Assembly (NCBI GenBank): GCA_016926555.1
Contig: JAFGOI010000013.1
Location: 44,802-108,801 of the forward strand
DNA from: Patescibacteria group bacterium
GTDB taxonomy: Bacteria; Patescibacteriota; WWE3; UBA101185; UBA10185
DNA: 64,000 nucleotides
Direction: 5' to 3'
Notes under the pieces: model-generated
The model's database searches: none
Told to the model about the DNA's origin: nothing
What the model saw: only the letters and a program-made list of their open reading frames with translations
Part shown: piece by piece, positions 6,185 to 57,653 of the stretch
Layout of the letters: every line of letters starts with the position of its first letter
Numbering within the stretch: the stretch's first letter is position 1
Position numbers and translations under genes: made by a program

Positions 6185-8023
6185 ATGAAAAGAAAACTAA
6201 CTGCGAAAATACAAAAACTCAATCCCACACACCAGGGAACAACTACAAAAGCTTTCGCACAAAGTTTAGTCATAGAACCGGAAACTCGCAAACTCGCGTT
6301 GCAAAAAGGCACTATTTACGCCGTATATGATATCTCCAGCGATCTCGAACTGGAACATAGTGTTATATCAAAAATCGTCCATGATATACTTCGGGATCTG
6401 TACTTCCAGTCGGAAAATATATCCCCAACACAAACTCTGGAAAAAACCATCTTAGAAATAAGAAACAAAGTCACGCAAATGGACGAAACTAGCAAAACTA
6501 GATTTAACATTGTCGCGGCAGTATTATGGGGAAATGTATTATATTCAGTACAGTTCGGCTCCGGAAAAAGCTACCTCGTCCAAGAAGGTGAAATTAGACC
6601 GATAAGTACTATCTCTGAAGGAAATTTCGCGGCAGCTTCAGGAGTAGTCAACGATGATGACGTAGTCATTCTATCCACAGAATCCTTTGACAACGAGTTC
6701 CCGCCAAAAAAGCTACTATCATCATCCATACCGGAAAATAATCTCGCGGCACAGCAGGCCGCAATACTAATGAAATTCATTGTAGACACTGAGTTTTCCG
6801 AAAACGAAATAGTAGACTTTGGTCTTGAAGAAACCAAAAGAAAAGGCAACCTGTCTCAGAAAATAAAAAATCTCTTCAAAAAACTTACTAACGCCATTAA
6901 AAAAGGTAGACTACAGGCAAAATCTACTAATATGTCAAACAGGAAATTAATCATCATTATAGGCCTTACCGTACTATTAATACCTATCGCGGTTTTAATT
7001 GTCAAGAAAAGTAAAAAAACCGAAGAACCCACAGAACCCGCACAGGAGCAACTCTTAGGCATGGATATCAAAAGGGAAACAAATACTTGGGAGGAGGAAA
7101 AAAAGAATGACGAGAAAAACAAAGTCGTCAGAATATCCCCAGAAGCATTCTTTGATATTAAAATCATAGACGACACAACTGATCCTACTGAAATAGAAGT
7201 AGTCGATGAAAAGATTATAGTAGCAGCAAAAGACAGCGGTAAAATCTTCATATCCGAGATGGAAACTCCCAATTTCGAAAAAACAAACCTTGAATTTCCG
7301 GGGGTTGAGAGTCTAAACAGCTCAAAAAGCGCCTTATCCTTCAACGATAATGAAGGGTTCAAATATTTCAACATAGAAACAGCTGAAGTAGACGAAAGCT
7401 ACGAAGATCCTGATCTTACACTTACAGATACATACATGGACTTTATATACGCCATAAAAGGCAATCAGATAATCAAGTTCACAAAAGAAAATGGTTATCT
7501 AAGCAACACAGTATGGAGCGACGATGAAAGGTTTTCAAACGCAGTGTCTTTATCTATAGCATACAGTATTTTTGTAACTACAAAGGACAGTTCGATTTTA
7601 AAGTATACTGCGGGAGAATTTGACCCTTTCGAACATACCAAATTAGAAATACCTTTAGGACCTAGAATAAAAATATTTTCCGATACGTTACTGAACGATA
7701 TATACATCCTGGATCCGGATAACAAAAGAGTAGTCATCTTCAACGATTCGGGCGAACTTATAAAACAATACAAAACGGAAAAGGAGGAGACCTGGAATAA
7801 TATGAAGGATATCTCGGTTTCTGATGACGAAAAATATATTTATGTGCTTAATGACACAAAAATATACGTAATAGGTCTTGATGTTGAAGAATTCGAAGAA
7901 GAAGCAGAGACAGAAGAATCCCCACAGGTGGAAGAAAGCGTGGATACAACAGAAAACACTTATACGAATACTTCCACAGATAATGTTGAAGTAGGAGACA
8001 CTTCCGCAGGTATTACCGAGTAA
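6185..8023 (+). CDS. bitopic membrane protein: cytoplasmic degenerate PP2C-like domain, one TM helix, extracellular beta-rich domain, acidic tail
   Basis: 612-aa ORF. The N-terminal segment GTIYAVYDISSD...NIVAAVLWGNVLYSVQFGSGKSYLVQEGEIRPIS...DDDVVILSTESFDNEF parallels PP2C motifs (DGxGGH, GDSRxYLxRDGExxQLT, LLLCSDGL), but the metal-binding Asp residues are replaced. A TM helix spans about residues 255-275, and the C-terminus is Glu/Asp-rich. Confidence 0.5.
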   Translation: MKRKLTAKIQKLNPTHQGTTTKAFAQSLVIEPETRKLALQKGTIYAVYDISSDLELEHSVISKIVHDILRDLYFQSENISPTQTLEKTILEIRNKVTQMDETSKTRFNIVAAVLWGNVLYSVQFGSGKSYLVQEGEIRPISTISEGNFAAASGVVNDDDVVILSTESFDNEFPPKKLLSSSIPENNLAAQQAAILMKFIVDTEFSENEIVDFGLEETKRKGNLSQKIKNLFKKLTNAIKKGRLQAKSTNMSNRKLIIIIGLTVLLIPIAVLIVKKSKKTEEPTEPAQEQLLGMDIKRETNTWEEEKKNDEKNKVVRISPEAFFDIKIIDDTTDPTEIEVVDEKIIVAAKDSGKIFISEMETPNFEKTNLEFPGVESLNSSKSALSFNDNEGFKYFNIETAEVDESYEDPDLTLTDTYMDFIYAIKGNQIIKFTKENGYLSNTVWSDDERFSNAVSLSIAYSIFVTTKDSSILKYTAGEFDPFEHTKLEIPLGPRIKIFSDTLLNDIYILDPDNKRVVIFNDSGELIKQYKTEKEETWNNMKDISVSDDEKYIYVLNDTKIYVIGLDVEEFEEEAETEESPQVEESVDTTENTYTNTSTDNVEVGDTSAGITE

Positions 8024-9044: not shown

Positions 9045-9067
9045 ATTCTATAGATTGACCTATAATA

Positions 9068-9096
9068 TTGCACCCCCTATAATTTTATAGTATACT
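9068..9096 (+). promoter_or_regulatory. candidate sigma70-type promoter (TTGCAC-N17-TATACT) in the AT-rich leader before the GC-rich island
   Basis: Read directly from the sequence. It lies about 200 nt upstream of the first island gene. No transcript data are available. Confidence 0.3.
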
Positions 9097-9303
9097 TCAA
9101 ACAATTTTCCAACTTGTAATCTGCTCTTAGTGCAGGTGAAAACTAATTATTATGGCACCTTGAAAACCCGTATGGGTTGATAGGTCCTACATACACTTAT
9201 ATTTCCCTCTAGTTATCCTGGGATTTGAGTGTATGTTGGGCTTATTAACCCGAATGAACTGGAAAACTGAATAAGAACATAAACTTTTGAAAGGAGGAAG
9301 GCC

Positions 9304-11112
9304 GTGGCGAAAAAGAAGAAAGGCCACGAGAAGAAGAGCGGAATTTCGATCTGGCAATTCCTCGGAAAAGCCCTATCGATTTTTACCGCTTTCTTCCTGT
9401 GGTTCGCCACAGGATTACCCTTCTCGCTGGTGCCCAAGTGGCAGAAGTGGACAGTGGCAACGGTTGCCGTTGCTGAAGGCGCTGATATTGGCAGGACTGC
9501 AATCTCATGGAACGCTGACCTGCTTCCTGATCTTACCCCAGAACTCATAGCCGTTGGCATTGAGAATGGGGTGCATCCGGATGCTTTGAGTGGGATGGTG
9601 AAAGCCTCTGCGCTCGAACGGAGCATTGCGTCCGGACTTCCAGAAGCCGGTACAGGCCTGAGAGTAGATATGTACACGATAGGCGGTATTGGTGATATCG
9701 AGAGTTCTCTCGATGTGGACTCCGTGAACCCGGAGGAAAAGAACGTTACCGGGGGATGCAACGCGGTGTGGGAGCTAATGCACCACCCGTTGCTGGACGG
9801 AGTTAAGGAGGTAAACGCCCTTCGCCAGATAGCTAAGGCACAGGGCTTAAACCTCTGGAAGATCAAGGGAAGCTGCGGAGCCGGCTGCGTGGGGTGGAAT
9901 CAAAGTCTCCCTACTAACTGGATCCGACTAATGGGACCCGAGTTCGACCCATGGAACCGCGAACACGCGCAAGAGTTCACAGCGCGTTACTTGGTCGCGG
10001 ATGGTGATTACTTCACCATGGGTCGTGAGCACGCAATTAGGGCTTACAACCCTAATGCAAGCGACGCGGAATACTTGCAACCAGTACTCGCAAGAGCAGC
10101 TCAGTTGCAGACGGCTTTTGAGGAAGCAGAGCTAGCTGCCCCGGAAGTTGAGCTCAGAACATCAGAGCTTACACTGGCGGGAGATGAAGAAACAGAAGAA
10201 AACATAGTTGAAGTCGAACTTGAGGAACCGACAACAGAGTCGGTTACTGAACTCGACGGATGGCCCGTTCCCCTAGGTACGGGCAGAACTGGCGTACCTT
10301 TTGGAGCACCGTCTAGTTACCAGCCTCAAGGGCATTCAGGGATCGACCTGGGCGTATCTACAGGCACCCCGATCAAGAGTGTCGGGTCCGGAGTCGTCGT
10401 CTACGTTGGTTGGTTCCCGCAGCAGGCGTTGTGGAAACTGAGAAACATCGGTCACGGTAATACTGTGATCGTGTACCACGGGGTAGCATCGGATGGAGAC
10501 CCTGTGTATTCCTACTACGCACACCTTTCTGAATTCGCTGTTGAAACCGGCGAGTACGTTCAGGAAGGCGATATCGTAGGTTTATCAGGAAACACAGGCG
10601 CATCCAGCGGTCCCCATCTCCATTTCGCCATCCGAAAGGGCGGTGGAATCGAGTATGACGGGGCTGATGCAGACGGCCGTGATTGGTCAGACGGCCAGTG
10701 GGTTGATCCAGATCTCTGGGTCAACAACACCCAAGGAGGTGGTGAATTCGAACTTACAGCAGAGGTCCCAATCAGAGGCAGAATCACCGGAGGTACGTCG
10801 AGAGAGGTGACAGTTATACTCTTGAATACTCCCTCCGTAGAATTTGCAGCTTGGTTGGGAAAGGTTTCGCGAGCGGCAGAACAAGGCGTGGCCATCCTTG
10901 AACGTACTCCTATCCCGGAAGTAGTTCGGGAAACGGAGCGTGTTTCTACTCTGACCGAGCTTCTCGAATCAATCAGCTCGGCAGGAAAAAGGTGGTATGT
11001 GCCAGTTTCTACCCTCGCCATAGCGGGTCAACCTAAAGAGCTAGGGCTCAACCCGCTGGTAGACTGGGCTATCATCAGTATCGGTGAAGAAACTGATAGC
11101 CCTTTTAAATGA
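9304..11112 (+). CDS. membrane-anchored M23 (LytM-type) peptidase with large N-terminal domain of unknown function; first gene of GC-rich island
   Basis: 602-aa ORF starting at GTG, preceded by AAAGGAGGAAGG. It has a Lys-rich N-terminus and one TM helix. The C-terminal domain carries M23 signatures GHSGIDLG (HxxxD) and GPHLHFAI (HxH), plus YYAHLSEF. GC content is far above the flanks. Antisense ORFs in this stretch are GC artefacts. Confidence 0.75.
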   Translation: MAKKKKGHEKKSGISIWQFLGKALSIFTAFFLWFATGLPFSLVPKWQKWTVATVAVAEGADIGRTAISWNADLLPDLTPELIAVGIENGVHPDALSGMVKASALERSIASGLPEAGTGLRVDMYTIGGIGDIESSLDVDSVNPEEKNVTGGCNAVWELMHHPLLDGVKEVNALRQIAKAQGLNLWKIKGSCGAGCVGWNQSLPTNWIRLMGPEFDPWNREHAQEFTARYLVADGDYFTMGREHAIRAYNPNASDAEYLQPVLARAAQLQTAFEEAELAAPEVELRTSELTLAGDEETEENIVEVELEEPTTESVTELDGWPVPLGTGRTGVPFGAPSSYQPQGHSGIDLGVSTGTPIKSVGSGVVVYVGWFPQQALWKLRNIGHGNTVIVYHGVASDGDPVYSYYAHLSEFAVETGEYVQEGDIVGLSGNTGASSGPHLHFAIRKGGGIEYDGADADGRDWSDGQWVDPDLWVNNTQGGGEFELTAEVPIRGRITGGTSREVTVILLNTPSVEFAAWLGKVSRAAEQGVAILERTPIPEVVRETERVSTLTELLESISSAGKRWYVPVSTLAIAGQPKELGLNPLVDWAIISIGEETDSPFK

Positions 11113-11150
11113 TCTAACTTCACACACATCAAATAAGAGGAGTTACAACA

Positions 11151-12089
11151 ATGGAAGCCAAGTTTTGGACGTGGATGAAAGCATTCGTGGTTATCATCCT
11201 GGCCGGAGCACTATCCGGGACGGGATGGTGGGTACTAGTCGGTCGCGGTCTCAAAGGAATCACAACCGCGCCGGGACAGGTGGCACAAGGATATACTGGG
11301 GAAGAGAATCCTTCGATTCAGATACCAGGAGGTCCTCACTGCCTGTTCGGAGGCAAACTGTGCGTCAACATGGGGGGTACCACTTTCTACCTCCCGACTG
11401 GCGAAGAAAGCTGGCTCGACGAAGGCGGCAGTGGAGGCAGTGAAAGCCAAATCGTCACGTTCGAAGTTCCGGAAGAGTCTGAGGACACGACTGGAGCTCA
11501 GACAGCACCGGAGACCAATACGGGTGGCGCAGCTGAGTACATTCGTTCAGGCAAGTGCGCCATGTACGTTGGGTTCCTCAAGGGACTTGGCGACGGCGCA
11601 GACTACACACTCGTAGAGGAACAAGCCAACGAAGTTCTGGCTGAGTGCCCCGGAAACGACGTGGAAGCCATGGAAGTGGCAGCCGCAGCAATGGGGGCGG
11701 TGGGCCTGTACAAGGCGCGACTCCAGGCGGAAGCCGATACAAGACAAATGGCGATCGACTCATGGAACACCGTCGCAATGGCAGCCGAAAGCCTCAGTCC
11801 GACGGACACACGAGGCTTTAAAAGCATCGTCACGGAGCTAGGTGGAACGTTTCACCTGGCCGAGATCGAAGGCTTGTTGCCGAAGATCCTACAGAGGATT
11901 GTTGGAGGCGGTGAGCCTTGCCATGTGTACGTCAACCCACCGACTCTTATGGCAGGCGACGTTAAGGCCGTAGAGATGACGGTTCAACTAGCCGTCCTCT
12001 GGGACCTTGGTATAGGCGCGGAAGGACATGGGCTGACCCTGCCGACAGTTCCCGAGTTCCCAGCGGACTATACACTGACGGAGGAGTGA
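11151..12089 (+). CDS. hypothetical signal-anchored or secreted protein (island gene 2)
   Basis: 312-aa ORF preceded by AAGAGGAG. It has an N-terminal hydrophobic helix (FVVIILAGALSGTGWWVLVG), is GC-rich and has no recognisable domain. It starts 38 nt after the M23 gene stop. Confidence 0.55.
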   Translation: MEAKFWTWMKAFVVIILAGALSGTGWWVLVGRGLKGITTAPGQVAQGYTGEENPSIQIPGGPHCLFGGKLCVNMGGTTFYLPTGEESWLDEGGSGGSESQIVTFEVPEESEDTTGAQTAPETNTGGAAEYIRSGKCAMYVGFLKGLGDGADYTLVEEQANEVLAECPGNDVEAMEVAAAAMGAVGLYKARLQAEADTRQMAIDSWNTVAMAAESLSPTDTRGFKSIVTELGGTFHLAEIEGLLPKILQRIVGGGEPCHVYVNPPTLMAGDVKAVEMTVQLAVLWDLGIGAEGHGLTLPTVPEFPADYTLTEE

Positions 12090-12099
12090 GGAGGCTACT

Positions 12100-12990
12100 A
12101 TGTCCAAGAGATCAAGGCTACTCGAGGAAAAGTACGCCAAAGAAAGGGCGAATCAGGACGCAGATGCCGCAAGAGCAGCCGTAGAGGAGCTGGAAAGTAC
12201 CTGGCAGGCTCGTAAGGGGCTTCTACAGCGACTCTATATCCCTCGGCCCAGCAAGCCGTCATTCCTGGGTTGGGGGTGCCTGTTCGAAATCCTCTACTGG
12301 ACGGCTGTGTTCGTGCTGTGGCTCTACACACCGAGCATTTTGGCACCAGCAGCCGGGATCGGATTGCGACTGTATATGTTGCACAGGTCAGGGAAGCTAC
12401 TGGGGACACTGCCGCAAGATGTACGCGACAAGATCGGCGGTGATGAGGATGAGAATGAGGAATCAGCCGGGAAAGGATCCGGTTTCTTCACCTTCGTGGT
12501 TAAGCTAGGGGTATCCCTGGCTGTCATAATAACCACCGTAGCAATCACCATCAGTGCCCCAGGGTTGGCAGCCCTCTTCGGACTGGTGCTGACGGGTATC
12601 AGCTTCATCTGGCTACGTAAACCAAGCCGACCTTGGCAGGACTCAAAAGGCTTGTGGCATATACACCCCGCCTTCCTGTACTCCCTCCTTACGGGACAGA
12701 TCGGGTACATGTTCCAGAGGTTCTCCTATGGACCGAAAGGAACACGAATTAGCCGCTGGCGGATCTTGAGCTTCGGACGAGGTGAAAGCAATGTGGGAGG
12801 ATCCACAACAGACATCGACGTAGATGTGACTATCCTATCGTGGTTGCTTGGCGCAGCCATTGTTACAATAGGAAGTTCCGGGGGAGATCCCGACGAAGCC
12901 TTCATACCAAGGTGGGCAGACATCGACACCATCCTCAACCACATCATGGAGAACATCAAGGACGAGGGCGATGGGGAGGACGATGAATGA
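12100..12990 (+). CDS. hypothetical polytopic membrane protein (island gene 3)
   Basis: 296-aa ORF preceded by GAGGAGG, starting 10 nt after the stop of gene 2. It has about 4 hydrophobic helices, an acidic loop and an acidic C-terminus, and is GC-rich. Confidence 0.55.
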   Translation: MSKRSRLLEEKYAKERANQDADAARAAVEELESTWQARKGLLQRLYIPRPSKPSFLGWGCLFEILYWTAVFVLWLYTPSILAPAAGIGLRLYMLHRSGKLLGTLPQDVRDKIGGDEDENEESAGKGSGFFTFVVKLGVSLAVIITTVAITISAPGLAALFGLVLTGISFIWLRKPSRPWQDSKGLWHIHPAFLYSLLTGQIGYMFQRFSYGPKGTRISRWRILSFGRGESNVGGSTTDIDVDVTILSWLLGAAIVTIGSSGGDPDEAFIPRWADIDTILNHIMENIKDEGDGEDDE

Positions 12991-13261
12991 AAGCCCAATG
13001 GACGGGGGACCGCCCCATGCAGTTTCGCCAGTTCACATGCGGGAGCAGCAAGAAAGGAGACAAGAAAAGCTAACTGCCCGGAGCCCTCCGCTCTACCTAC
13101 TACACACAATATGTCGTGTGCAGCAAGGGGAACGGGGGGCTTCGTCGTTTTATAGACTTTTTTTGAGTTAGAACCACAACACCTTTACTAACACTTTAGA
13201 TCGCAAAAATATTACTTACTTTCAGAAATGAGAAACCATTCAAAATCTAATAAAATAAATG

Positions 13262-15706
13262 CTAAACTTCAGGCCATTTAGAAACTGCAATAGGATTATC
13301 GTATTTTCTCGGAATATTTTCCCACACAGCCTCAGTCACAAACGGCATAAACGGGTGTAACAACTTCAAACTATTTAAAAACACATGTCTTAACACGCTT
13401 AACCCTATCCTTTTACTCTTTATATCTTCTCTATTCTTAACATCTTCAATATATATATCTGCAATTTCATGCCATAAAAAGTGGTACAGTGCGTCCCCTG
13501 CCTCCATAAATCTGTATTTCTCAAGGTTTTCAGTCACATATGTTACTAAATCTGAATACTTATTTAATATCTCCACATCCACCTCAATGAAATCCTCTGG
13601 ATCTAGCCACGGATTGCAGTCACAAGACTCTGTACAGGTACAATGCTTCAAAAACGGTACATCTTCACCAGTTTCTTCCTTGTATGAATCCGCCATCATA
13701 ATCATAAACCTTCCCATATTCCATATTTTGTTTGCAAAATTCCTGTAACCTCTAACTTTATCGGCGCTAAAAGAAGTAGTTCTAGCTGCTGAATTTCCTC
13801 CAACCAGCATACCCATTCTTAACGCGTCTGCTCCATACTTTTCCACAAATTCCAATGGATCTATAACATTTCCCTTGCTTTTACTCATCTTTTGACCTTT
13901 TTCATCGTCTATTCTTCCGTGAATATATACATTTTCATAAGGAACTTTCGGACCATCTTCATCATCCTTTGTTAAATAGAGCGAAAACATAATCATTCTA
14001 GCTATCCAGAAAAACAGAATGTCCCACATAGAGTCCATAAATTGGGTTGGGAAAAACTCCTTGTAATCGTCACCATCAGGATAACGCAAAGTTGCGAAAG
14101 GCCATTGCCCCGATGAAAACCATGTATCAAATGTGTCTGTTTCAGGTATGAATTCTTCGTTTATCTGATCTTGTCCAGCTTTTTTATCAAGACCCGTATT
14201 GATTCTCTTACCCGGATCTTCAGCGCTTATTTCATATCTTGCATCTTTTGGAACGATTACTTTTTGTAAACCTTCCTTAATTTCATCCAAACTAAAACCT
14301 TCTTCCCTAAGATCGTGCAATAATCCCTCATGACTGTTACCATCTTTGTCAATAAAAACAACAAAGATTCCCCCGTTCTCATTAGATTCAGAATCCTTTA
14401 CGTAATACCAAATAGGAATCCTAATACCAAAAACGGTCTGTCTGCTTATCGGCCAATCATGAATATTTTCAAGCCATTTGAGTGACTCTCTCTTCCACAA
14501 ATTTCTATTGTATTTAACTTTTCCCGTTCTTATTGCCTCTATAGCCATACTTGCCAGATTAATTTTCTTGTCAGTCATTTTTACAAACCAATTTGGCAAA
14601 AGCATAGGCTCAATAGGTTTTTTATCTTTATAATCAACAAGAAGGTTGTGTGTGTACTTCTCGTCTATTTTTTCTAAAGCGCCTTTTTCCTCAAGAATCT
14701 CTACAGTTTTCTTACGAGCTGAATGTACTCTCATTCCGGCTACATCAGAAGCCTCTTTTGTCATTTTCCCTTCCAAATCAACCACGGAAATCATGGGCAA
14801 ATTGTGTTTTTTACCTATTTCATAATCATTAAAATCGTGTCCCGGGGTAATTTTTAACGCACCTGTTCCAAAATCTATATCCACGTACTCATCTTCAATA
14901 ATTTTCATTTCTCTGCTATTTAACGGATTTATAGCTACCTTTCCAACATATTTTTTATACTTTTTATCTTTTGGATTTACCGCAATGGCAACATCGGCAT
15001 ATATTGTTTCTGGGCGCCCGGTCGCCACAGTTACAAATTCATCTGAATCCTTGATTTTGTATTTAACATAGTAAAGCGGAGAAACCTCTTCCACATGTTC
15101 AGTCTCTAAATTGCTAAAAGTGGTCCCATGCGTAGGAGAATAATTCACAAGATAGTCATCCCTGTAAACTAAACCATCTTTGTGCATTTTTTGAAAAGTA
15201 TCGTAGACAGTATCAATTACATGTTGGTCCAACATAAAAGTAGACCGATCCCAATCACAGCTCATGCCCATTTTTTTAAGCTGATCTATTGCCATATCAG
15301 AGTTTTCTAATACAAAATTTAAAATATCGTTGTACAAAGTTTCTCTGTCAAAATCAAATCTGGATTTACCTTCTTTTTTTAGTTTTCGTTCGTATACAAC
15401 TTGAGTTTCAAAACCGGCGTGATCTGTTCCCGGAACATACAAAGTTTTGTATCCTTGCATTCTTTTAAACCTTGTCATTAAATCCTGAATCGCATATGTC
15501 GCGTGCCCACAGTGCAGGGGAGCGTTAGCGTTTGGAGGAGGTATTAAAACAGTGTAAGTTTCATAAGTGCCATCAGCATTTTTCTTTACTTCCAAACCAG
15601 CGTCTTCTCTCATTTTTATACTTTTTTCAGGTGAAAAGACACCAAGTTCTTCCCACTTTTTATATATTTTTTCTTCCCACTCTTTGTGGTCGTATTTTTT
15701 GTCCAT
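13262..15706 (-). CDS. valS: valine--tRNA ligase (ATG at 15706 preferred over the track's GTG start at 15736)
   Basis: HIGH-type motif PLHCGHA and KMSKS are present. The N-terminus MDKKYDHKEWEEKIYKKWEELGVF aligns to the ValRS start. The upstream GTG extension would read through a hairpin and U-tract. Confidence 0.9.
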   Translation of the reverse strand: MDKKYDHKEWEEKIYKKWEELGVFSPEKSIKMREDAGLEVKKNADGTYETYTVLIPPPNANAPLHCGHATYAIQDLMTRFKRMQGYKTLYVPGTDHAGFETQVVYERKLKKEGKSRFDFDRETLYNDILNFVLENSDMAIDQLKKMGMSCDWDRSTFMLDQHVIDTVYDTFQKMHKDGLVYRDDYLVNYSPTHGTTFSNLETEHVEEVSPLYYVKYKIKDSDEFVTVATGRPETIYADVAIAVNPKDKKYKKYVGKVAINPLNSREMKIIEDEYVDIDFGTGALKITPGHDFNDYEIGKKHNLPMISVVDLEGKMTKEASDVAGMRVHSARKKTVEILEEKGALEKIDEKYTHNLLVDYKDKKPIEPMLLPNWFVKMTDKKINLASMAIEAIRTGKVKYNRNLWKRESLKWLENIHDWPISRQTVFGIRIPIWYYVKDSESNENGGIFVVFIDKDGNSHEGLLHDLREEGFSLDEIKEGLQKVIVPKDARYEISAEDPGKRINTGLDKKAGQDQINEEFIPETDTFDTWFSSGQWPFATLRYPDGDDYKEFFPTQFMDSMWDILFFWIARMIMFSLYLTKDDEDGPKVPYENVYIHGRIDDEKGQKMSKSKGNVIDPLEFVEKYGADALRMGMLVGGNSAARTTSFSADKVRGYRNFANKIWNMGRFMIMMADSYKEETGEDVPFLKHCTCTESCDCNPWLDPEDFIEVDVEILNKYSDLVTYVTENLEKYRFMEAGDALYHFLWHEIADIYIEDVKNREDIKSKRIGLSVLRHVFLNSLKLLHPFMPFVTEAVWENIPRKYDNPIAVSKWPEV

Positions 15707-15912
15707 AAAAAACCTCTCATTACTGAGAGGCTCCACAAACTAATTTTAGTGGAAGGTACCAACCTTCTCTATACTTTATTTACAGCTATAACGGGCATTC
15801 CCGTCGGGTTCTAGTTTCCTGCGGAGCGCGTCAAAACAGCGCTACTAGACGCAAAATTTCTTCCCGAAGCATCACCTGGTGACATGATCCAAGCTCAGAC
15901 GCTTTTAGTTTA
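15707..15912 (-). promoter_or_regulatory. candidate T-box-like leader of valS: terminator/SD-sequestrator hairpin plus alternative antiterminator with UGGUACC bulge
   Basis: On the minus strand, CCUCUCA-GUAA-UGAGAGG followed by U6 abuts the ATG, and GAGAGG also serves as the SD. Upstream, GAGAAGG-UUGGUACC-UUCCAC...GUGGAG-CCUCUC can fold as helix A1, a 7-8-nt bulge and helix A2, mimicking the T-box motif AGGGUGGNACCGCG. CCGUUA (F-box-like) lies about 25 nt further 5'. The segment is locally GC-rich (visibly above the surrounding AT-rich DNA). Confidence 0.4.
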
Positions 15913-20087: not shown

Positions 20088-21399
20088 AAAAAGGATTGTG
20101 TATCAAGGACAAGCCAAGTGTAATCCAGAACAATAAATGGGTTTGATGCATCGTAATTAAGTAGTGATCAAAACACCCTATAAACACCAACGTAAAAAGT
20201 GGGACTAAAAATAAGGTGTTATTACGTAGACACGCTTTTAATGTTAGATAAATTAGACATAAAAACAGCCCTGCTGAAAACACACCCGCTTCCGAAAGAA
20301 TGAGAACAAATATATTATGCACCGGTTGAATAAACCTCACAGATGTATATATCACCTTGTTATCTTCAATAACCGACGTAGATGTTCCATAACCCAGCCC
20401 AAAAAGAGCATTATCCTTAATTATTCTGTAGTTAGAAACAAGCAAATCAGCCCTTCTATAAAAAGAGGAATATTTTGATAAAAGCGCACTTTTTCGAAAA
20501 ACAGGAAGGCTTAATGAAAATATCAGTGTAACAACAATCAGCAAATAAACAAGGCCAACAAACTTTTTGCCTTTTGACATAAACAACAAAAATAAACTCA
20601 AAATAAAACAGACATAAGACACAATGCTGAGGGTTATTAGTAGATTAACCAGAGCCAACAATAGAACCAGGTAATATAGGCCGGTATATTTGTTTTTATA
20701 CAAAGATAGCTTAAATATTAATTTGCTCTTCTTATTTGAAAACTCCACCTCCAAAACAAGAAACATTAAGAACCATACGATAAAAATAGTTAAATATCCC
20801 GAAAATGTATTCGGATGTCTAAACAGCCCATATGGCGGAATAAATTCACTGCCGAAAAAATACTCACTCGTGATTCCTCTAGTCTGTTTGTTGTAAGGTT
20901 GCTCGCCAAAATATAAATAATTGTTAAACACTGATCCCTGTTTAATTAACTGCATAACCCCTAAAACACTTAGCAAAAAAATCGAAACAAAAGATACACA
21001 CACTATATTTTTTATGAACTTTTTTGTACTGACTTCATATCTCACATAAAAAGTAATCAAGCTATATAAAAAGGTCCTCAAAAAAAATGTGACGGAGGCC
21101 ATTTTCCTTTCGGAATTTATAATTGAAAAGATCAACGAAAACAGAAACAAAAAAAGTACCTGACCATACTTATCAAAAAATATACTTCGAAAAGAATCTT
21201 TATCTTTCACAAGTTCCAAAAACCAGAAAAACAGGAGTAATACAACAAGTAAGTCCTGCACGTATATAACAGGGATTAAATAATCAACAGTTAACCCATA
21301 TACATAAGAATCCTTGACAACATAATGCTTACCTATATTAAGAGGCAAAAAAAACACGAGTACTAAAAAGATGTATTGAGATATTTTCTTGTGACTCAT
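20062..21399 (-). CDS. polytopic membrane protein, O-antigen ligase/polymerase (Wzy_C)-like
   Basis: 445-aa ORF with 10 or more TM helices and a large loop near the C-terminal third. It overlaps gatD upstream by 4 nt. Confidence 0.45.
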   Translation of the reverse strand: MSHKKISQYIFLVLVFFLPLNIGKHYVVKDSYVYGLTVDYLIPVIYVQDLLVVLLLFFWFLELVKDKDSFRSIFFDKYGQVLFLFLFSLIFSIINSERKMASVTFFLRTFLYSLITFYVRYEVSTKKFIKNIVCVSFVSIFLLSVLGVMQLIKQGSVFNNYLYFGEQPYNKQTRGITSEYFFGSEFIPPYGLFRHPNTFSGYLTIFIVWFLMFLVLEVEFSNKKSKLIFKLSLYKNKYTGLYYLVLLLALVNLLITLSIVSYVCFILSLFLLFMSKGKKFVGLVYLLIVVTLIFSLSLPVFRKSALLSKYSSFYRRADLLVSNYRIIKDNALFGLGYGTSTSVIEDNKVIYTSVRFIQPVHNIFVLILSEAGVFSAGLFLCLIYLTLKACLRNNTLFLVPLFTLVFIGCFDHYLITMHQTHLLFWITLGLSLIHNPFYAYNTRDA

Positions 21400-22166
21400 T
21401 TATACTTAAATGAGGCAGTGTAAGCAGGAATCACTAACGAATTATCTATAGAAGGCAGACTGTCCATTCCTAAACTTTTAGATATTAAGTAATCAGCTAT
21501 ATGCGCATTCCTTGATAAAAGGGGACCGTGGAAATACGTTCCCAATGTATTCTTAAATAAGATTCCCTCAGTATCATCTTCCCCATTATTACCATAACCT
21601 CTTTCAACATACGCAAGAGGGGCCATGTCATCAGCTAAATAGCTTCTCCCTCCGTGATTACAAAAACCTACAATTTTACCGCCTAGAAAATTAACCTCAG
21701 AAAAGACAGGATCACTAAGAAAATCGCTATTCAAGCGAGCTACAACATTACCAACACACCTTGCTTTTCTACCCCCAAAGTGTTGCGTGTACATATCATA
21801 AATACCCAGTCCTTCTATAAATGTACCGTCATCCGCTTTATAATAGTGCCCTAATAATTGATAAGCTCCACAAATAAACAAACCAACACCTCCCTTTTGA
21901 ATATACTCATTAAGATAATCTCCTTTATTTTTTAACAAATCCTTATATACCTCTTTCTGGCCTGAATCAGGGCCGCCCCCCATGAAAACAATGTCCAGAG
22001 CAGACATAGCTTTCGAATTTATTTTCAAATCAGTATCAATATGTACAATGTCAACATATATATTTCTTCTCAGGGCGCGCATTGTTAATATTTCAACATT
22101 TCCGTTATCTCCATATAAATTGAGCTGATCCTTATAAAAATAGCCAATAGTTAATTTTGTGGTCAT
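21396..22166 (-). CDS. gatD: lipid II isoglutaminyl synthase, glutamine amidotransferase subunit GatD
   Basis: LNLYGDNGN, ICGAYQLLG (catalytic Cys), NHGGRSY and GYGNNGEDDTEGILFKNTLGTYFHGPLL match Staphylococcus GatD segments almost residue for residue. It overlaps murT by 4 nt. Confidence 0.85.
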   Translation of the reverse strand: MTTKLTIGYFYKDQLNLYGDNGNVEILTMRALRRNIYVDIVHIDTDLKINSKAMSALDIVFMGGGPDSGQKEVYKDLLKNKGDYLNEYIQKGGVGLFICGAYQLLGHYYKADDGTFIEGLGIYDMYTQHFGGRKARCVGNVVARLNSDFLSDPVFSEVNFLGGKIVGFCNHGGRSYLADDMAPLAYVERGYGNNGEDDTEGILFKNTLGTYFHGPLLSRNAHIADYLISKSLGMDSLPSIDNSLVIPAYTASFKYK

Positions 22167-23332
22167 AATATAGACCTCCCAACTAACAACTTACGCAGCT
22201 CAAGCATAGATGAATAATTGGGATAACACACAATTGTTTTATCTTTCATACACTTATTTATCTTTTTCAAGCTCTCTTTTATACTCCTGTTTATATTATC
22301 TTTACCAAGAGTTACACCTGCATAATCCAACCTTAGCGCCATTTCAAGATAACGCGTACCACTTACATAAATATCTTTAGAATGACAAACTTTTTTTAGC
22401 AAAACAGGGTCAATATCATATATCCAAGAAACATCTTTTCCGTCAGGGATATTATCGTTTAGTATAAACAATAGAGAGTCTATATGGATTTTTTGAGACA
22501 TAAACATTTTTAAGTTATTGTTGAAACTAGCGGGATTTTTAGCCAGATATATTTTATATATATTCTGAGCATAATTTATTTCCTCCCCTCGACCATAGGC
22601 TAATTTAAAATCGGAAAGTGCAGAGATACTCACTTCTTCCGAAATACCCATTAATTCAACTGCAATTAAAGCCGCATTTAAATTTTTCGCATTAAACTCA
22701 CCTGATAAAGAAGTCTTATCTAGAGCAGTGTAAGAAGAGTCAAAACCATAAGTATCCAGCGTATCATCCACAAAAAAAGGCTTAAAATATTCCTGGGATT
22801 TATCCAACACTATTTTGGTAGGGAAACTAAACTTTTTTAATCCAGCCTTCCATTTATTTAAAACTATATCTGGTTCAAAATATCTATCTAATTGATCTCG
22901 GGACACATTCATTAACAAAGCAGTAACATCAAGTGAAGAAGTTCTATGTTTGCCAAGTAAATCCAGAAAATAGGGAAAAAACAACTCGTCCACTTCCAAT
23001 ACAGCAACATCTCTGTTTAACCTACCAAGTATATTTGTACCTAAAAGTAAAGATGATATGATGCCATTAAGAAGATTCGCACCGCTTTTATTGCTAATTA
23101 CTCTGTAATTATTATTCTGTAAGATATGACTGATTATTTTTGTAGTTGTAGTTTTACCATTAGTACCAGTAACAAGTATGAGTTTACTCGGTAACATGCA
23201 GCAAATTTTTTTAACTATTTTGGGATATATTTTTAGTGCAATATATCCTGGATATGTGTACCCCGCACCTTTGTTTATGATTTTGGAGATTCTGCTGATC
23301 AATTTTGAAATGTAAGTTGTTATAAGATACAT
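22163..23332 (-). CDS. murT: lipid II isoglutaminyl synthase, Mur-ligase-like subunit MurT
   Basis: P-loop LVTGTNGKTTTTKIISHIL of the Mur ligase central domain, a DUF1727-like C-terminus, and the conserved murT-gatD order. Confidence 0.8.
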   Translation of the reverse strand: MYLITTYISKLISRISKIINKGAGYTYPGYIALKIYPKIVKKICCMLPSKLILVTGTNGKTTTTKIISHILQNNNYRVISNKSGANLLNGIISSLLLGTNILGRLNRDVAVLEVDELFFPYFLDLLGKHRTSSLDVTALLMNVSRDQLDRYFEPDIVLNKWKAGLKKFSFPTKIVLDKSQEYFKPFFVDDTLDTYGFDSSYTALDKTSLSGEFNAKNLNAALIAVELMGISEEVSISALSDFKLAYGRGEEINYAQNIYKIYLAKNPASFNNNLKMFMSQKIHIDSLLFILNDNIPDGKDVSWIYDIDPVLLKKVCHSKDIYVSGTRYLEMALRLDYAGVTLGKDNINRSIKESLKKINKCMKDKTIVCYPNYSSMLELRKLLVGRSIL

Positions 23333-23649: not shown

Positions 23650-25050
23650 TTATTCCTCGAATATCATTTGCTTTATGTTAACTATATCTTGCCTTAGTTT
23701 CCCCATTTTTGTAAGTTCTTCCCCTATTTTATCCACACCGTGCATAATTGTTGTGTGATCCCTACCTCCTAAAAATTCTCCGATGGTCATAAACGGTGTG
23801 TCTGTAATATCTTTAATAAGATACATGGCTACTTGTCTGGGGATAACTATTTCTTTTGTTCGTCTTTTCCCTTTTAAATCGGTTGATTTAACAGAGTAAT
23901 AAGTACACACATATTTTAATATTTGGTTCATATTTACAGGTATTGAAGATCTTTCTTTAATCGTGTGCCCGAGTATGTTTGCAGCGTTATCAACAGTGAA
24001 ATCCAACCCGGATGATCGAATGCTTGTTAATACCTGCATGTAAGCTCCTTCTAACTCTCTAATGTTTGTAACCACTTTTTCTGCAATAAAATCAATGACA
24101 TCATTTGGGATAGTGTCTTGGTTTTTGTCTCTTAAATTCCTTAAAATAGCTATTCTCATCTCTAAGTCAGGAGGTTGTATGTCTGCAATTATTCCTGAAG
24201 CAAAGCGTGAAGTAATTCTATCTTCAAGTTTAGTAAATTCTTTAGGTGGTCTATCTGAAGTTATTACTATCTGTTTTTGAGCCATGTAGAGTGTGTTAAA
24301 TGTGTGGAAGAATTCCTCTTGAGTAGTCTCCCTACCTATTACAAATTGGATGTCGTCAATTAGTAGGACATCCGCCTTGCGAAACTTATTTCTAAATTCG
24401 TTAGAAGCGTATTTTCCTCTTCTTCCACTTTGAATTGATTCAATTAACTCATTTGTGAATTGTTCCCCTGTTGTATAAATAACTTTCATGCCAGGTTTAG
24501 ATTGAATAATTCTGTTTCCAATTGCTTGCAGTAGATGTGTTTTTCCTAGTCCCACGCCGGAGTACATAAATACAGGATTGTATTGTTCCCCCGGTCTTTC
24601 TGCTACAGCTATGGCTATTGCATAAGCAAGGTTGTTGTTTCTTCCTGTAACGAAAGTTTCGAACGTAAATTTTGGTGTTAAATTTGATCTTTGCTGTTTT
24701 TCCCTAAAAAGATTTTCCTGGTCCTGCTTTTGTGTAAATAAGGGACCTAGTACAGTATCTTCTTCCATGCCTTCTTCTTCGTATTGTTGCGTTGTTTTGA
24801 ATACTTTGGATGTTAGCTTGCTTTTAGTGTCTGTAGTTTTGTCTATTACCATTTTTATGTTGTCTATGTATTTTGAGTCTATATTCCTTTTAGTAAATGT
24901 GTCTTCACAAATGATCTCATATTTATTGTCAGATATTTTATTAAGAGTTGCCTTGTTGCTTAAAGATCTAAATATAGGTGATTTTATTTCTATTTCACCT
25001 ATAATTGCTTTCCACAATGTAGTTGTATCTACTTGAGTTTTCTTAGACAT
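23650..25050 (-). CDS. dnaA: chromosomal replication initiator DnaA
   Basis: AAA+ Walker A GVGLGKTHLLQAIGN, a C-terminal DNA-binding domain, and a probable start at MSKKTQVDTTTLWKAI. A perfect DnaA box TTATCCACA lies upstream at 25119-25127. Confidence 0.9.
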   Translation of the reverse strand: MSKKTQVDTTTLWKAIIGEIEIKSPIFRSLSNKATLNKISDNKYEIICEDTFTKRNIDSKYIDNIKMVIDKTTDTKSKLTSKVFKTTQQYEEEGMEEDTVLGPLFTQKQDQENLFREKQQRSNLTPKFTFETFVTGRNNNLAYAIAIAVAERPGEQYNPVFMYSGVGLGKTHLLQAIGNRIIQSKPGMKVIYTTGEQFTNELIESIQSGRRGKYASNEFRNKFRKADVLLIDDIQFVIGRETTQEEFFHTFNTLYMAQKQIVITSDRPPKEFTKLEDRITSRFASGIIADIQPPDLEMRIAILRNLRDKNQDTIPNDVIDFIAEKVVTNIRELEGAYMQVLTSIRSSGLDFTVDNAANILGHTIKERSSIPVNMNQILKYVCTYYSVKSTDLKGKRRTKEIVIPRQVAMYLIKDITDTPFMTIGEFLGGRDHTTIMHGVDKIGEELTKMGKLRQDIVNIKQMIFEE

Positions 25051-25154
25051 ACTTATTTGTTGGTATAATAACATTTCGTGGACAGATTACGGGGCAGTAG
25101 ATATAAATTTAGCATGAGTTATCCACAATGATAAAGCAACGTGTGTTGGTTTAA

Positions 25155-25902: not shown

Positions 25903-26331
25903 TTATTTTTCTAAACTTTTAAAGTATCTCCTTAATATTATACCAGCAGCTAGATGGTCTTTGTGTTGCCCTCTTTTTTGGGATATTTCCAGCTCAATAG
26001 AGGCTTCAAGTGCCTCTCTTGAGGAGTCTAGTTCTTCCTGGAATTCCACTGGTTTTTTTGATATCGCTTTTAACAAATTGGCGAACTTTCTAACTTTCTT
26101 GGCCTGATTGGTATCTTTTCCGTCATGTGTTACAGGGAGTCCCAGTACATATAGATCTACCTTATTCTGCATACCGATTCTTGTTATTTCTTGTGCGGCA
26201 AATATGGAATTTTTTCCCGGGATAATATTTAGAGGTTGAACTAACTCGTTTCTTCCGAGTGCAATACCTATATTAGTTTCTCCGTAGTCTATTCCTATAT
26301 AAGTTTTTGCTGATGTGTTTCTTTTATTCAT
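25903..26331 (-). CDS. ruvX: YqgF/RuvX-like RNase H-fold nuclease
   Basis: 142-aa ORF with YIGIDYGETNIGIALG at the N-terminus (RuvX LGxDxGxKxIGVAxS pattern). Confidence 0.55.
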   Translation of the reverse strand: MNKRNTSAKTYIGIDYGETNIGIALGRNELVQPLNIIPGKNSIFAAQEITRIGMQNKVDLYVLGLPVTHDGKDTNQAKKVRKFANLLKAISKKPVEFQEELDSSREALEASIELEISQKRGQHKDHLAAGIILRRYFKSLEK

Positions 26332-27845
26332 TCTCGCACTATTTCTAGGTGAATTTTATCTGTTTCATGTGGGACATATCCGAAAAACGGAATACTGGGT
26401 CTTATTTCTAATTCATATGTTTGAATATTATTTATACCGCCAAGTGTTTTTTGGGCTTCCTCGGGAGTTTTACCCTTAAGACTTTCTATTATATCTTCTT
26501 TGTTTAACTTGGGTACAATATAGGTTTTAAGAGTGACTTGCACATCGGCTTCGGTTGGGGATAATATGCTGTTGGTTGAATTCCCCAGAATATCCACTTT
26601 AGTATCCCTATCACCTTCGTATAGCTCAAATCCTTCGGGTACAATATCCGCTACTATTTTATCCAAAAAACTGTCCAAGTCTTTTTTTGAGTATGATAGT
26701 CCTGTTGCTGTTATTTCTTGTGTAAGTGTGAGTTCTTTTGTTTCTTCACCCAGTTCGTGGCTGTACTTCTCGTTGGTTATGGTGGTCGAATATGAGCCCT
26801 CAATATATTGAAATCCGGTATTTACAGTGTTTTTCAAGGATTTGGCAGCTTTTTCCTCGGCTTCTTCTAAAAGTTCTAATGACAATTTTTCTATATCGTC
26901 CTTGCCCACAGTTTTAATTGTTGTACTTTTCCCACCCTTGAAATCAGAGTTTGCCTCCGCGGCGGCTTTGCTTTTCTTATAGTCGTCCAGTTCTAATGCG
27001 GAGCCTTTTTCTATGTTGTAGGCATCCCCTATGTGTTTTGCTTCAACATCAACCTCTTTCTGCCCGGGGATAAGAGGACTTCCCGGATCTGTAATATCTT
27101 GGGGAGCAAGTGGAGGGATTTTAATATCGTCTAAAGTGACAAATACTAAATCTTCATCGTCTTCTTTATAAGCTAGTTCGGCTCCTTTGTCTAACTCAAT
27201 TTCATCTGTTGTTTTGTTATAAATCAGTACAGTTCCCCTGGCTTTTTCTCCTTCGATTTTTTCTCCTGTTGTTTCAATTGATTTTTCATTTTTTATTTTG
27301 GTTTCAACAGATATACCCTTGAGTATTTTGTTTTCTATATTTGTGTCTGAAGTTGATGAAACTTTTACTGTGATGCTGCGTGTAAGTGGCTGTGCGTTAA
27401 CGAAAATTTTTGCATAGGCCTCGGGTTTTTTCGAGAGCATCTTTAGTCCGAAATATCCTATTATCGCGATAACTAAGGGAATCACCAAAAATAGAAGATT
27501 GAATTTCAATTTCGGAAATTTACGTTTTTTTCTGGGCTTAGTTTCTGCAGCGGACCCTTCAAATGTGGCTACTTCGTCTATACTGTCTGAATCCTCTAGT
27601 ACGCTTGTGCCTACTTTTTCCTCCATCATCTCAATTAATGTGTTTCCCTGCTCATCTGTTGTCGTGAAATGTACGCTTACGTCGTTTTTGTCGCAGAAGG
27701 AATTTATTAGCTTAAGATTAATGATGTTGTCGAAAAGAACGGAGCCATCTGGAACTATAAGTTCTATGCCGGAGTCATTGATATTTCTGATTTTATTTAT
27801 GGTGGATATTGTATCGTCGTAAAGTTCAAGTTCTATTTTAGTCAT
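26328..27845 (-). CDS. bitopic membrane protein, hypothetical (part of VirB4-like operon)
   Basis: 505-aa ORF with a basic stretch plus a TM helix around residues 105-135 and a large charged extracellular region. Its ends overlap both neighbouring genes. Confidence 0.5.
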   Translation of the reverse strand: MTKIELELYDDTISTINKIRNINDSGIELIVPDGSVLFDNIINLKLINSFCDKNDVSVHFTTTDEQGNTLIEMMEEKVGTSVLEDSDSIDEVATFEGSAAETKPRKKRKFPKLKFNLLFLVIPLVIAIIGYFGLKMLSKKPEAYAKIFVNAQPLTRSITVKVSSTSDTNIENKILKGISVETKIKNEKSIETTGEKIEGEKARGTVLIYNKTTDEIELDKGAELAYKEDDEDLVFVTLDDIKIPPLAPQDITDPGSPLIPGQKEVDVEAKHIGDAYNIEKGSALELDDYKKSKAAAEANSDFKGGKSTTIKTVGKDDIEKLSLELLEEAEEKAAKSLKNTVNTGFQYIEGSYSTTITNEKYSHELGEETKELTLTQEITATGLSYSKKDLDSFLDKIVADIVPEGFELYEGDRDTKVDILGNSTNSILSPTEADVQVTLKTYIVPKLNKEDIIESLKGKTPEEAQKTLGGINNIQTYELEIRPSIPFFGYVPHETDKIHLEIVRE

Positions 27846-29142
27846 ATTTTACTCCTGTTATTTCACTATATATTATTGAAAGGCAGGCTAGAGGCAGCCA
27901 TTCAGAATTGTTTGTTCTTCCTGTAGCGTCATTTATTTTACTTAGATCCATAAAATCAAGTTTTTTAAAATCCGGAGGCTGTTTGAAAGGAACAGATCTC
28001 ATCCAAGGCTCCTCAGATACAGTTTCTACAAGGTTTGGAATATGTGTCGCGGCTCCGGTTAGATATACTTTGGGAGAGAAGGTTTTGACGCCGCTAAATT
28101 CACCAAATAGAAGTTCAAGACCTTGCAGCCATACGTCTAGAGTTTCAAGCAAACACGAATGGACAATGGCGCTTTCTCCGGGAGTTAATTTCTCAGATAT
28201 AAATGCCTCCAACACTTTTTCTGCTTCCATGGGAGTTAAACCCATTTTTTCACCTAGATCCTCAATAAAATGATTGTATCCTATATTTAAACTTCTGGTT
28301 GCAGCGATTCCCTTTCCGAATACGACGGCTACATTAGTCGAATCATTGCTAGTATCGATGATAACGTAGTCGGTGTTTTCAAGGGAGGCAAAGTTTAACT
28401 GTTGCGCGATTGAGTATGTTTCCGATCCTACTGCAAATAAGTTAAGACCGCTAGCGTCGATGACTTTCTCAAGTGTTCTTAAGTGAAACTTTGGGCAGAA
28501 AGAGTTAAATACGGCAGTTTCAATGACCTTTCCTTCCTTCCCTTCCAGTTCGTCAATAAATTTTCCGTCCAGTTTTGTATATACGTTTGATGTGGTTATT
28601 ACTTCTAAGTCTGCGTCGGGATTACCCGTTTTATTTAAATAGTCATTTTGGACCTGCATATAGGCTGCTTCTAGAAGCTGTTTATATATCTTGTCTATAT
28701 CTTTTTTCGAAATTGGGGATTTAGTTCCTCGATTTACTCTTACAGTTGTCATTAATCCCATACACATGTCTCCTGTTACGCCAACGATAACTTGTTTGAT
28801 ATTTTCTTCCAGATCTTTGGTAGCGTTTACTACAGCAATTTTTATTGCTTCTTCTACATCGGATTGGTCTATAATTGTCCCAGAGAGTACACTTCCCAGT
28901 TCCAGCTTCTGCTTGTCATGACCTATAATTTTACAGGAAGATTCTTCCTGGTACATAACTAAACACCTCACATAAGAAGAACTTATCTCCAGAGTAAAAA
29001 ATTTATTAGAATCTCTTTGGGACTTTTTCAGGAAGGGTAGCATAACCATTGGCTTTATTTTAGAATATTTTGCTTTAAAAGGGAATTTTACCAGGAGGTA
29101 TTTTGGGAGGAGGCGGTTTTTCTGTTTCGTTAAATCCGGCAC
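27838..29142 (-). CDS. actin-fold ATPase of FtsA/PilM family
   Basis: 434-aa ORF. Alternating beta/alpha segments with Gly-rich phosphate-loop-like regions (VIVGVTGD, YVIIDTSNDSTNVAV) are typical of the ASKHA FtsA/PilM fold. No ftsZ is adjacent. Confidence 0.45.
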   Translation of the reverse strand: MPDLTKQKNRLLPKYLLVKFPFKAKYSKIKPMVMLPFLKKSQRDSNKFFTLEISSSYVRCLVMYQEESSCKIIGHDKQKLELGSVLSGTIIDQSDVEEAIKIAVVNATKDLEENIKQVIVGVTGDMCMGLMTTVRVNRGTKSPISKKDIDKIYKQLLEAAYMQVQNDYLNKTGNPDADLEVITTSNVYTKLDGKFIDELEGKEGKVIETAVFNSFCPKFHLRTLEKVIDASGLNLFAVGSETYSIAQQLNFASLENTDYVIIDTSNDSTNVAVVFGKGIAATRSLNIGYNHFIEDLGEKMGLTPMEAEKVLEAFISEKLTPGESAIVHSCLLETLDVWLQGLELLFGEFSGVKTFSPKVYLTGAATHIPNLVETVSEEPWMRSVPFKQPPDFKKLDFMDLSKINDATGRTNNSEWLPLACLSIIYSEITGVKYD

Positions 29143-57409: not shown

Positions 57410-57435
57410 CTTTGTCTATTTTTTGTGGAGTGTGT

Positions 57436-57464
57436 TTGCAGGGAAGGTGCTTCCGAAGTAGAAT
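57436..57464 (+). promoter_or_regulatory. candidate sigma70 promoter TTGCAG-N17-TAGAAT
   Basis: Read from the sequence. It lies about 30 nt upstream of the SD of the small ORF at 57498. Confidence 0.3.
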
Positions 57465-57497
57465 CTGTATATCTTATCAACAAAGGAGGTAAAGAAG

Positions 57498-57581: not shown

Positions 57582-57653
57582 ACCAAGCTCCCCTTAACTA
57601 GAAACTGCAGAACATCGCAGGAGTAGGGTTAGGGGGAGCTCAAACAACTCAAA

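Follow-up and report, generated by a model that had tools for sequence, protein, structure and literature searches.

A stretch of 3.7 kb with about 55% GC (53-55% across ~9.3-13.15 kb) stands out from the 64,000 nucleotides of DNA analysed here (the window), which belong to a 170,802-nucleotide contig of a Patescibacteria (candidate phyla radiation, CPR) genome with 38% GC. This island carries three genes, all on the same strand: g1 (9304-11112, +) for a predicted signal-anchored muralytic enzyme of 602 amino acids, g2 (11151-12089, +) for a predicted bitopic membrane protein of 312 amino acids and g3 (12100-12990, +) for a predicted polytopic membrane protein of 296 amino acids. It is bounded by the gene of ribosomal protein L25 (8379-9044) and by the convergent valyl-tRNA synthetase gene valS (13262-15736); proteins of the island are found under the locus tags JXA34_03695 and JXA34_03700. 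The three genes have 54.6% GC compared with 37.6% for the remaining window, a difference of +17 points, and the DNA that surrounds the island has 35-39%. GC is higher at all three codon positions (GC content at the third position, GC3: 0.53-0.62 for island genes, 0.29-0.37 for host genes) and Gly, Ala, Pro and Trp are overrepresented in the island proteins. The module thus has the foreign base composition of a genomic island. Its junctions recur unchanged in a Logan assembly made independently from the same sample and run, and low-GC flanks recur in other genomes; an assembly chimera is therefore rejected.

A preliminary description of this DNA, made from the sequence alone, had already proposed an island at this position, and the contrasts in GC and GC3 together with the independent assembly bear this out. 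It had also given the reading frames of g2 and g3, which are confirmed exactly, both with an ATG start, and had assigned a Shine-Dalgarno sequence to each gene. Both are present: AAGAGGAG (11135-11142, +) lies 8 nt before the ATG of g2, and GAGGAGG (12088-12094, +) overlaps the stop codon of g2 and lies 5 nt before the ATG of g3. The near-zero spacing claimed for the genes is true for g2 and g3, which are 10 nt apart, but not for g1 and g2, with a gap of 38 nt. Translational coupling, which that description ascribed to these genes, is putative.

Word-index searches of 5.8 billion proteins with g2 and g3 returned self matches only. This result was misleading: relatives of both were found via the synteny with g1 and by exhaustive phmmer searches. 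Three full-length relatives of g1 (P0004-P0006) have 44-47% identity, and their contigs encode homologues of g2 directly downstream (29-32% identity, pairwise E 2e-25 to 2e-29) as well as homologues of g3 (32% identity across the C-terminal 133 amino acids, E 2e-19). Pattern searches with the N-terminal domain of g1 added metagenome loci and one Candidatus Pacebacteria genome; all relatives of this domain that were found are borne by the module. The exhaustive phmmer search, with g2 and g3 against 1.84 billion cluster representatives, identified only five relatives of g2 and seven of g3, and every one with an examined contig has the same gene arrangement. Altogether there are 12 distinct loci (the window, L002, L003, L004, L008, L009, L010, L011, L012, L013, L014 and L015); those whose flanks are identifiable lie in CPR-type low-GC genomes. 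A gene of the g1 family precedes g2 in all nine loci with observable upstream sequence, and g3 follows g2 in all ten loci with observable downstream sequence. In seven of eight observable loci, g3 is in turn followed by a fourth gene, g4, which is found in relatives only. This strict synteny agrees with the earlier proposal that g2 and g3 are undescribed components of a module with a lytic enzyme, and it makes them genuine, conserved partners of that enzyme.

The alternative that g2 and g3 have no functional link to g1, being either incidental cargo or spurious high-GC open reading frames, draws on the self-only matches of the word-index search and on the absence of any recognised domain. It is extremely improbable. 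In addition to the synteny in 12 loci, codon-aligned comparisons show fewest mismatches at position 2, more at position 1 and most at position 3, which is saturated, while the amino acids are conserved. Between L009 and L015, synonymous and replacement changes number 138 and 44 for g1, 67 and 43 for g2, and 67 and 116 for g3; between L003 and L014 they are 150 and 123 for g2. Thus, replacements are at most as numerous as synonymous changes in g1 and g2; in g3 they are more numerous than silent changes, yet a rough ratio calculated per site does not reach 1 for this gene either. The pattern indicates that g2 and g3 are real genes and that the module is under purifying selection, and the preliminary description's own caveat, that the two frames could be GC-driven artefacts, is refuted by the conservation in 11 other loci and by the codon-position pattern.

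The enzyme g1 starts with a K/R-rich N-terminus, followed by a transmembrane (TM) helix (aa 25-43) with an invariant WFxTGxP motif. The N-terminal domain (aa ~60-290, 230 amino acids) is strongly conserved, with a mean column identity of 66% in the alignment of relatives. An acidic linker separates it from an M23 endopeptidase domain (aa 343-447), and the C-terminal region is again conserved and ends in a near-invariant IAGQPRELxLDP..W motif. The assignment of the peptidase to M23, made before from the sequence, holds: g1 matches Pfam PF01551 with E 1.2e-25 and 89.9 bits (cut-off 28.7), and the metal ligands HxxxD (HSGID) and HxH (HLH) are intact in the translation. These motifs are shared with M23/LytM endopeptidases such as lysostaphin, LytM, MepM and ShyA; unlike these, g1 scores far below the cut-off of every curated NCBIfam equivalog, and its N- and C-terminal parts have relatives only within the module. 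Secretion of the enzyme, which had been assumed, is not apparent: g1 is predicted to be signal-anchored, with a conserved TM motif, and is thus not obviously secreted.

The N-terminal domain of g1 contains ES, GW(T/N)Q and YNPN motifs, recognised by eye in the alignment. SLT_2 matches to this domain are all below cut-off (E 1.4e-3 in L008, 0.016 in L010 and 0.21 in L009), the window copy has no SLT or SLT_2 match, and a PDB profile search with the domain yielded 0 matches. We describe it as transglycosylase-like and make no claim of family membership. Internal homology between the C-terminal tail of g1 and g2 was looked for and none was found. A match of the g1 tail to the 'phage integrase' domain DUF3701 (E 0.005-0.04) was rejected as sub-threshold and driven by TM segments or composition.

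The g1 relative of L004 (2612-5155) has its M23 domain swapped for a polysaccharide deacetylase (Polysacc_deac_1, E 2e-23; the region also matches PdaB/PgdA-like families) and retains the N-terminal domain and the C-terminal tail of g1 as well as g2 and g3. A Cys/His pattern reminiscent of NlpC/P60 was seen by eye within ~250 unassigned amino acids of the same enzyme and was not confirmed. The catalytic head of g1 is, judged from this variant, swappable. Since g2 and g3 are unchanged under the swap, the partners probably recognise the scaffold of g1 rather than its catalytic domain. The question of whether homologues of g2 and g3 always neighbour an M23 peptidase therefore has a divided answer: a g1-family protein is constant, but its M23 domain is not, and the constant partner is the g1 scaffold, consisting of TM helix, N-terminal domain and C-terminal tail.

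As proposed before, g2 is signal-anchored: its only hydrophobic segment is at the N-terminus (aa 12-30) and contains the conserved motif LGALxxTG, and an acidic tail of 282 amino acids follows. A short conserved juxtamembrane segment leads into a variable, acidic and proline-rich linker and then into a helical region with two cysteines (C136 and C166) that co-vary, as both are present in most homologues and neither is present in L004. The C-terminal ~90 amino acids form a conserved domain with the pattern GGxFxL..IEGL.PG...GGGE.C...PP. Judged from its cysteines and its acidic composition, most of g2 is predicted to be extracellular.

For g3, a structure was modelled with AlphaFold2 (AF2) from an alignment of eight sequences (predicted local distance difference test, pLDDT, 72 overall and ~80-90 for the C-terminal half). 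It comprises an N-terminal cytoplasmic helix and four TM helices (58-76, 81-97, 127-152 and 154-173) that form two TM hairpins; the second hairpin is followed by WLRKPSRP and then by a beta-domain, and the flanking charges are positive-inside. Conserved motifs of the family are W..FTA..WPW..AI..R..WW and WLRKPxxP. Four helices and a cytoplasmic acidic loop had been described for g3, and the loop between the hairpins (98-125) is indeed acidic and disordered in the window protein, but its acidity is not conserved in relatives. The C-terminal part (aa ~180-286) is modelled as a seven-strand beta-sandwich resembling a pleckstrin homology (PH) domain and capped by a C-terminal helix; its best fold matches among solved structures are the bacterial PH domains 3dcx and 3hsa. 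In the model, g3 is shown as N-in/C-in with a cytoplasmic PH-like domain, and almost nothing of the protein is exposed outside the membrane. A preliminary call for topology predictions is thereby answered by a bitopic g2 with a large ectodomain and a g3 nearly devoid of extracytoplasmic surface.

Neither g2 nor g3 has a match above noise in Pfam, PHROGs, NCBIfam or PADLOC, and PDB profile searches with either protein found nothing significant. Thus, the statement that no conserved domain is recognisable in the two proteins stands at the sequence level and does not extend to the model of g3; remote homology searches, likewise, were negative with sequence profiles and positive with the g3 model, which matches bacterial PH structures. 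A DUF3483 match of g3 (E 0.008) was rejected as sub-threshold and TM- or composition-driven.

Membrane-anchored bacterial PH families combine a TM hairpin with a PH domain for which an intracellular position is predicted, and ring formation is known for the soluble ones (PMC2817789). The only tested role of membrane PH-domain proteins is the export of leaderless bacteriocins by DdE/DdF of E. faecalis (PMC8657885). With bPH_2/DUF304-type proteins (YdbS/YdbT, DdE/DdF), g3 shares the order of a TM hairpin and a cytoplasmic PH-like sandwich with a C-terminal helix, the hairpin being directly N-terminal of the intracellular domain in the model and according to the charges. It differs from them in three respects: none of the eight members of the g3 family matches any bPH family of Pfam at E <= 10, there are several hairpins for one PH-like domain (the hairpin unit is repeated in some relatives, and members have two or three) and the genomic partner is a peptidoglycan hydrolase rather than a leaderless bacteriocin and an ABC transporter. 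YdbS and YdbT are known from the resistance of B. subtilis to peptides from other bacilli, and YdbT also repeats its unit.

In all loci the module is richer in GC than its flanks, the excess being 2.5 to 20 points, and GC3 forms a gradient: it is near host level in L010 (0.25-0.38 compared with 0.18-0.29), intermediate in L009 and L011 and around 0.6 in the window, L003, L004, L008 and L012. This range suggests differing residence times after transfer. Flanking genes differ from genome to genome: L25 and ValRS in the window, an HD-domain gene and ThrRS in L009, a tRNA array and an AI-2E transporter in L010, an AAA_14 ATPase gene and S6-SSB-S18 in L011, and tRNA-Arg and an AbiE-like gene in L008. 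The simplest reading of these sequence data is that the module was repeatedly transferred from GC-richer lineages and then ameliorated, and that the window received its copy fairly recently, from a donor with higher GC. The window copy is the most divergent member of the module, with 23-36% identity to all others, and its donor lineage is therefore unsampled. In three loci, a tRNA gene lies at most ~450 nt from the module (L010, 6515-7524; L008, 3231-3304; L012, 2543-2615), and L010 has two partial copies of tRNA-Lys (6600-6709) beside the intact gene that resemble old integration scars. The 64-kb window has no tRNA gene, and an exact look-up of the L25 protein, aimed at finding the empty site in a sister strain, gave no record.

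Conserved motifs within the TM segments of g1, g2 and g3 suggest intramembrane contacts between the three proteins. Together with the strict co-inheritance and with a C-terminal tail of g1 that is independent of the enzymatic head, these motifs argue for a membrane complex in which g2, g3 and g4 hold, position or gate g1. Our preferred explanation, to which we give a probability of roughly 0.45, is that g2 and g3 are subunits encoded by a rare, CPR-restricted and horizontally acquired operon, g1-g2-g3(-g4), for a membrane-embedded muralytic complex. g1 would dock on a platform of g2, g3 and g4 through two conserved parts, the TM helix and the C-terminal tail. As a stalk or adaptor, g2 would work on the outer side of the membrane, and g3 would work inside it, with the PH-like domain beneath the membrane and possibly oligomerising like known bacterial PH domains. 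The platform would position or gate local cleavage of peptidoglycan by g1, a putatively bifunctional enzyme, and would not serve to neutralise a secreted toxin. The module may act in remodelling of the cell's own wall, in breaching of a host wall or in the assembly of a machine.

Control of a membrane-anchored hydrolase by a polytopic membrane partner is known from LytH-ActH (PMC9245657) and SagB-SpdC (bioRxiv 10.1101/2021.03.06.434200) of S. aureus. These pairs, each consisting of a type-II-anchored hydrolase and a multi-pass partner, may serve as a working analogy for g1 and g3; there is no homology to ActH or SpdC, and the module has two or three partners in one operon.

Several observations weigh against a muralytic complex of this kind. 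The module is so rare that it cannot have a core function in wall growth. The window copy has no g4 and may therefore be in decay or impaired. A transposase, integrase or attachment site that would account for the mobility was looked for and not found, and searches for direct repeats or attachment sites at its ends gave nothing convincing. The transglycosylase-like label of the g1 N-terminal domain derives from sub-threshold matches in three relatives and none in the window copy. Finally, the single-sequence structure model of g2 is poor (pLDDT 49), too poor for a fold search.

M23 enzymes include bacteriocins, and g1 may instead be a bacteriolysin directed at neighbouring or host bacteria, with g2, g3 and g4 protecting the producer or aiding release of the enzyme. 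The module is accessory and horizontally spread, as weapons often are, and g3 shares, at the level of the fold, the architecture of membrane PH proteins that have been linked to the export of bacteriocins. We regard this explanation as rather unlikely: g2 and g3 stay the same when the catalytic domain becomes a deacetylase, the signal anchor of g1 is conserved and looks uncleaved, no locus has an ABC transporter or a Fem-type immunity gene and no protein matches an immunity family of PADLOC or Pfam. Since g3 has almost no surface outside the membrane, it is no classical immunity protein that blocks an active site. Immunity specific to the hydrolase is also not what the loci display, as g2 and g3 are retained with a deacetylase and g3 is membrane-embedded and cytoplasmic. 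Of the roles that the preliminary description had considered for g2 and g3, namely immunity, export or localisation, localisation or control is plausible and immunity is disfavoured; the bPH-like fold of the g3 model weakly keeps export, or a weapon, alive. A membrane platform is more likely than an antidote.

The product of g4, whose gene starts 2-9 nt after g3, is a membrane protein of 86-99 amino acids; it has two to three TM segments, carries the motif GGxTGEEI and is charged and hydrophilic at its C-terminus. In the window, its place is taken by a GC-rich, non-coding spacer of ~90 nt (12991-13078, +) that precedes a terminator hairpin. tblastn searches of the window with g4 of L003, L008 and L009 found no remnant, and there is no hydrophobic reading frame; the window copy has lost g4. 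Searches of g4 against family libraries gave no match to a holin family and nothing above noise.

A small membrane protein with a charged tail that is linked to a signal-anchored muralytic enzyme is also what phage holin-endolysin cassettes contain, and the module could be a phage-type lysis cassette, cryptic or domesticated, with g4 as holin, g1 as endolysin and g2 and g3 as antiholin- or spanin-like proteins. Size, number of TM segments, charged tail and position of g4 after g3 would fit a holin, the M23 portion of g1 matches endolysin and tail-lysin families of PHROGs, and the unit is compact, compositionally foreign and bounded by a terminator. The gene order and the two extra membrane proteins differ from those cassettes, however, and no other phage gene is present in any of the 12 loci, which are flanked by housekeeping genes. 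g2, g3 and the N-terminal domain of g1 have no match in PHROGs, 2.9 million viral contigs, 50,697 phage genomes and BFVD; no relatives came from the viral collections that were searched (IMG/VR patterns, INPHARED, BFVD) or from plasmids (PLSDB). Moreover, g1-g3 are under purifying selection far from any prophage, and the window keeps all three intact without g4. A lysis cassette is unlikely.

Further features support the view of the module as a transcription unit. In every locus, the GC-rich part starts at about the start codon of g1, and upstream of it is an AT-rich leader with a strong Shine-Dalgarno sequence. In the window, this leader contains a candidate sigma-70-like promoter (TTGACC-17-TATAAT, 9055-9083, +), identified by consensus match alone (11 of 12 consensus positions), and an imperfect long hairpin (9169-9256, +) with the inverted repeat 9174-9202/9223-9251. 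The minimum free energy of this hairpin is -46.7 kcal/mol (z -5.4) and 0 of 200 shuffled sequences are as stable. In six of seven loci (the window, L003, L004, L008, L009 and L010; z -2.9 to -5.4), a comparable hairpin of differing sequence precedes the start of g1 by 40-110 nt; its function may be that of an attenuator, of an mRNA stabiliser or of an insulating terminator. The last gene of the module is followed by a strong hairpin, often with a U-tract. Such terminator hairpins are present after g4 in L008, L009, L010, L011 and L012, and the window has a long GC-rich hairpin (13079-13144) with a U-rich tract (whole element 13079-13165; z -3.1 for the + strand, -4.7 for the - strand), which is likely a terminator, perhaps a bidirectional one that is common to g3 and the convergent valS. 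An Rfam search of leader and tail had no match. Its AT-rich leader, strong Shine-Dalgarno sequences and terminator hairpin make the module a self-contained operon.

Among 19 intergenic regions of the window, only the g1 leader, the island terminator and one more are comparably structured. A strongly structured intergenic region lies at 57410-57653 (z -5.3 with dinucleotide shuffles, no Rfam match); within it, an open reading frame of 27 codons (57499-57582) encodes a hydrophobic peptide, and two strong hairpins come after this frame.

Elsewhere in the window, a gene on the - strand (29075-31525) encodes a protein of 816 amino acids with DUF87/HerA and TraG-D_C domains, a VirB4- or coupling-protein-like ATPase that is probably part of a Patescibacteria type IV secretion system (T4SS). 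Its neighbours are two large open reading frames of 505 and 434 amino acids (26328-29142, -) without Pfam match. T4SS are widespread in Patescibacteria; M23 occurs in some of the patescibacterial VirB1 homologues, and most of these homologues are encoded apart from virB4 (PMC12102498). These data raise the possibility that the module is a VirB1-like, wall-opening sub-assembly for a trans-envelope machine, such as the T4SS or pili. The ATPase gene is 16 kb away from the island, and the combination of TM anchor, transglycosylase-like domain and peptidase in g1 mirrors hydrolases of monoderm conjugation systems (pIP501 TraG, pCF10 PrgK, ICEBs1 CwlT), which also have an N-terminal TM segment, a domain of the glycan-strand-cleaving type and a peptidase and are encoded on horizontally moving DNA. 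These hydrolases have CHAP or NlpC/P60 peptidases in contrast to the M23 of g1, for which, in addition, the transglycosylase assignment is sub-threshold. There are also faint, TM-driven matches of g4 to TraQ and of g3 of L010 to IcmT/TraK (E 0.016-0.17). The matches of g4 to TraQ and of g3 (L010) to IcmT, as well as one to the beta-lactamase Sed1, were rejected, being far below threshold and driven by TM segments or composition.

No T4SS gene adjoins any of the loci: neither an ATPase nor a VirB4, VirB6 or coupling protein is encoded alongside, and g2-g4 have no above-threshold match to a T4SS family. Furthermore, T4SS are widespread whereas about a dozen loci of the module are known, and the foreign GC3 gives the module a history that differs from that of the host genome. 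A role as accessory set of a T4SS is therefore unlikely, and the membrane-embedded muralytic complex remains our preferred explanation.

The host itself makes peptidoglycan, which is probably amidated, as the window encodes a MurT/GatD pair (22163-23332 and 21396-22166, -) and MurJ (37748-39388, -). The dnaA gene (23650-25074, -) is ~11 kb from the island.

Patescibacteria live attached to other bacteria, and to our knowledge it is largely unknown how they handle their own walls and those of their hosts. As a bolder and rather improbable extension of the proposal, the module may be a Patescibacteria-specific machine of four proteins that moves between lineages as a bare promoter-to-terminator cassette and with which episymbionts breach peptidoglycan in a controlled way, such as that of the host where they are attached. 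Its parts would be an enzyme with a swappable head, an extracellular stalk, a polytopic protein with a cytoplasmic PH gate, possibly ring-forming, and a small membrane subunit.

The module is new and very rare; it is built on a known kind of enzyme and has one link to bacterial PH proteins, at the level of the fold. Two ORFan genes can now be assigned to a defined module of four genes that are strictly inherited together, with about a dozen natural variants, one of them with a swapped catalytic domain, and the membrane-tethered bacterial PH domain is the first structural handle on it. The GC3 gradient neatly illustrates how, in a group with reduced genomes, a module can be transferred horizontally time and again and then ameliorate. 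Bacterial PH membrane proteins would gain a second functional context beyond the export of bacteriocins, and for Patescibacteria the module is a concrete candidate for a regulated wall-cutting complex.

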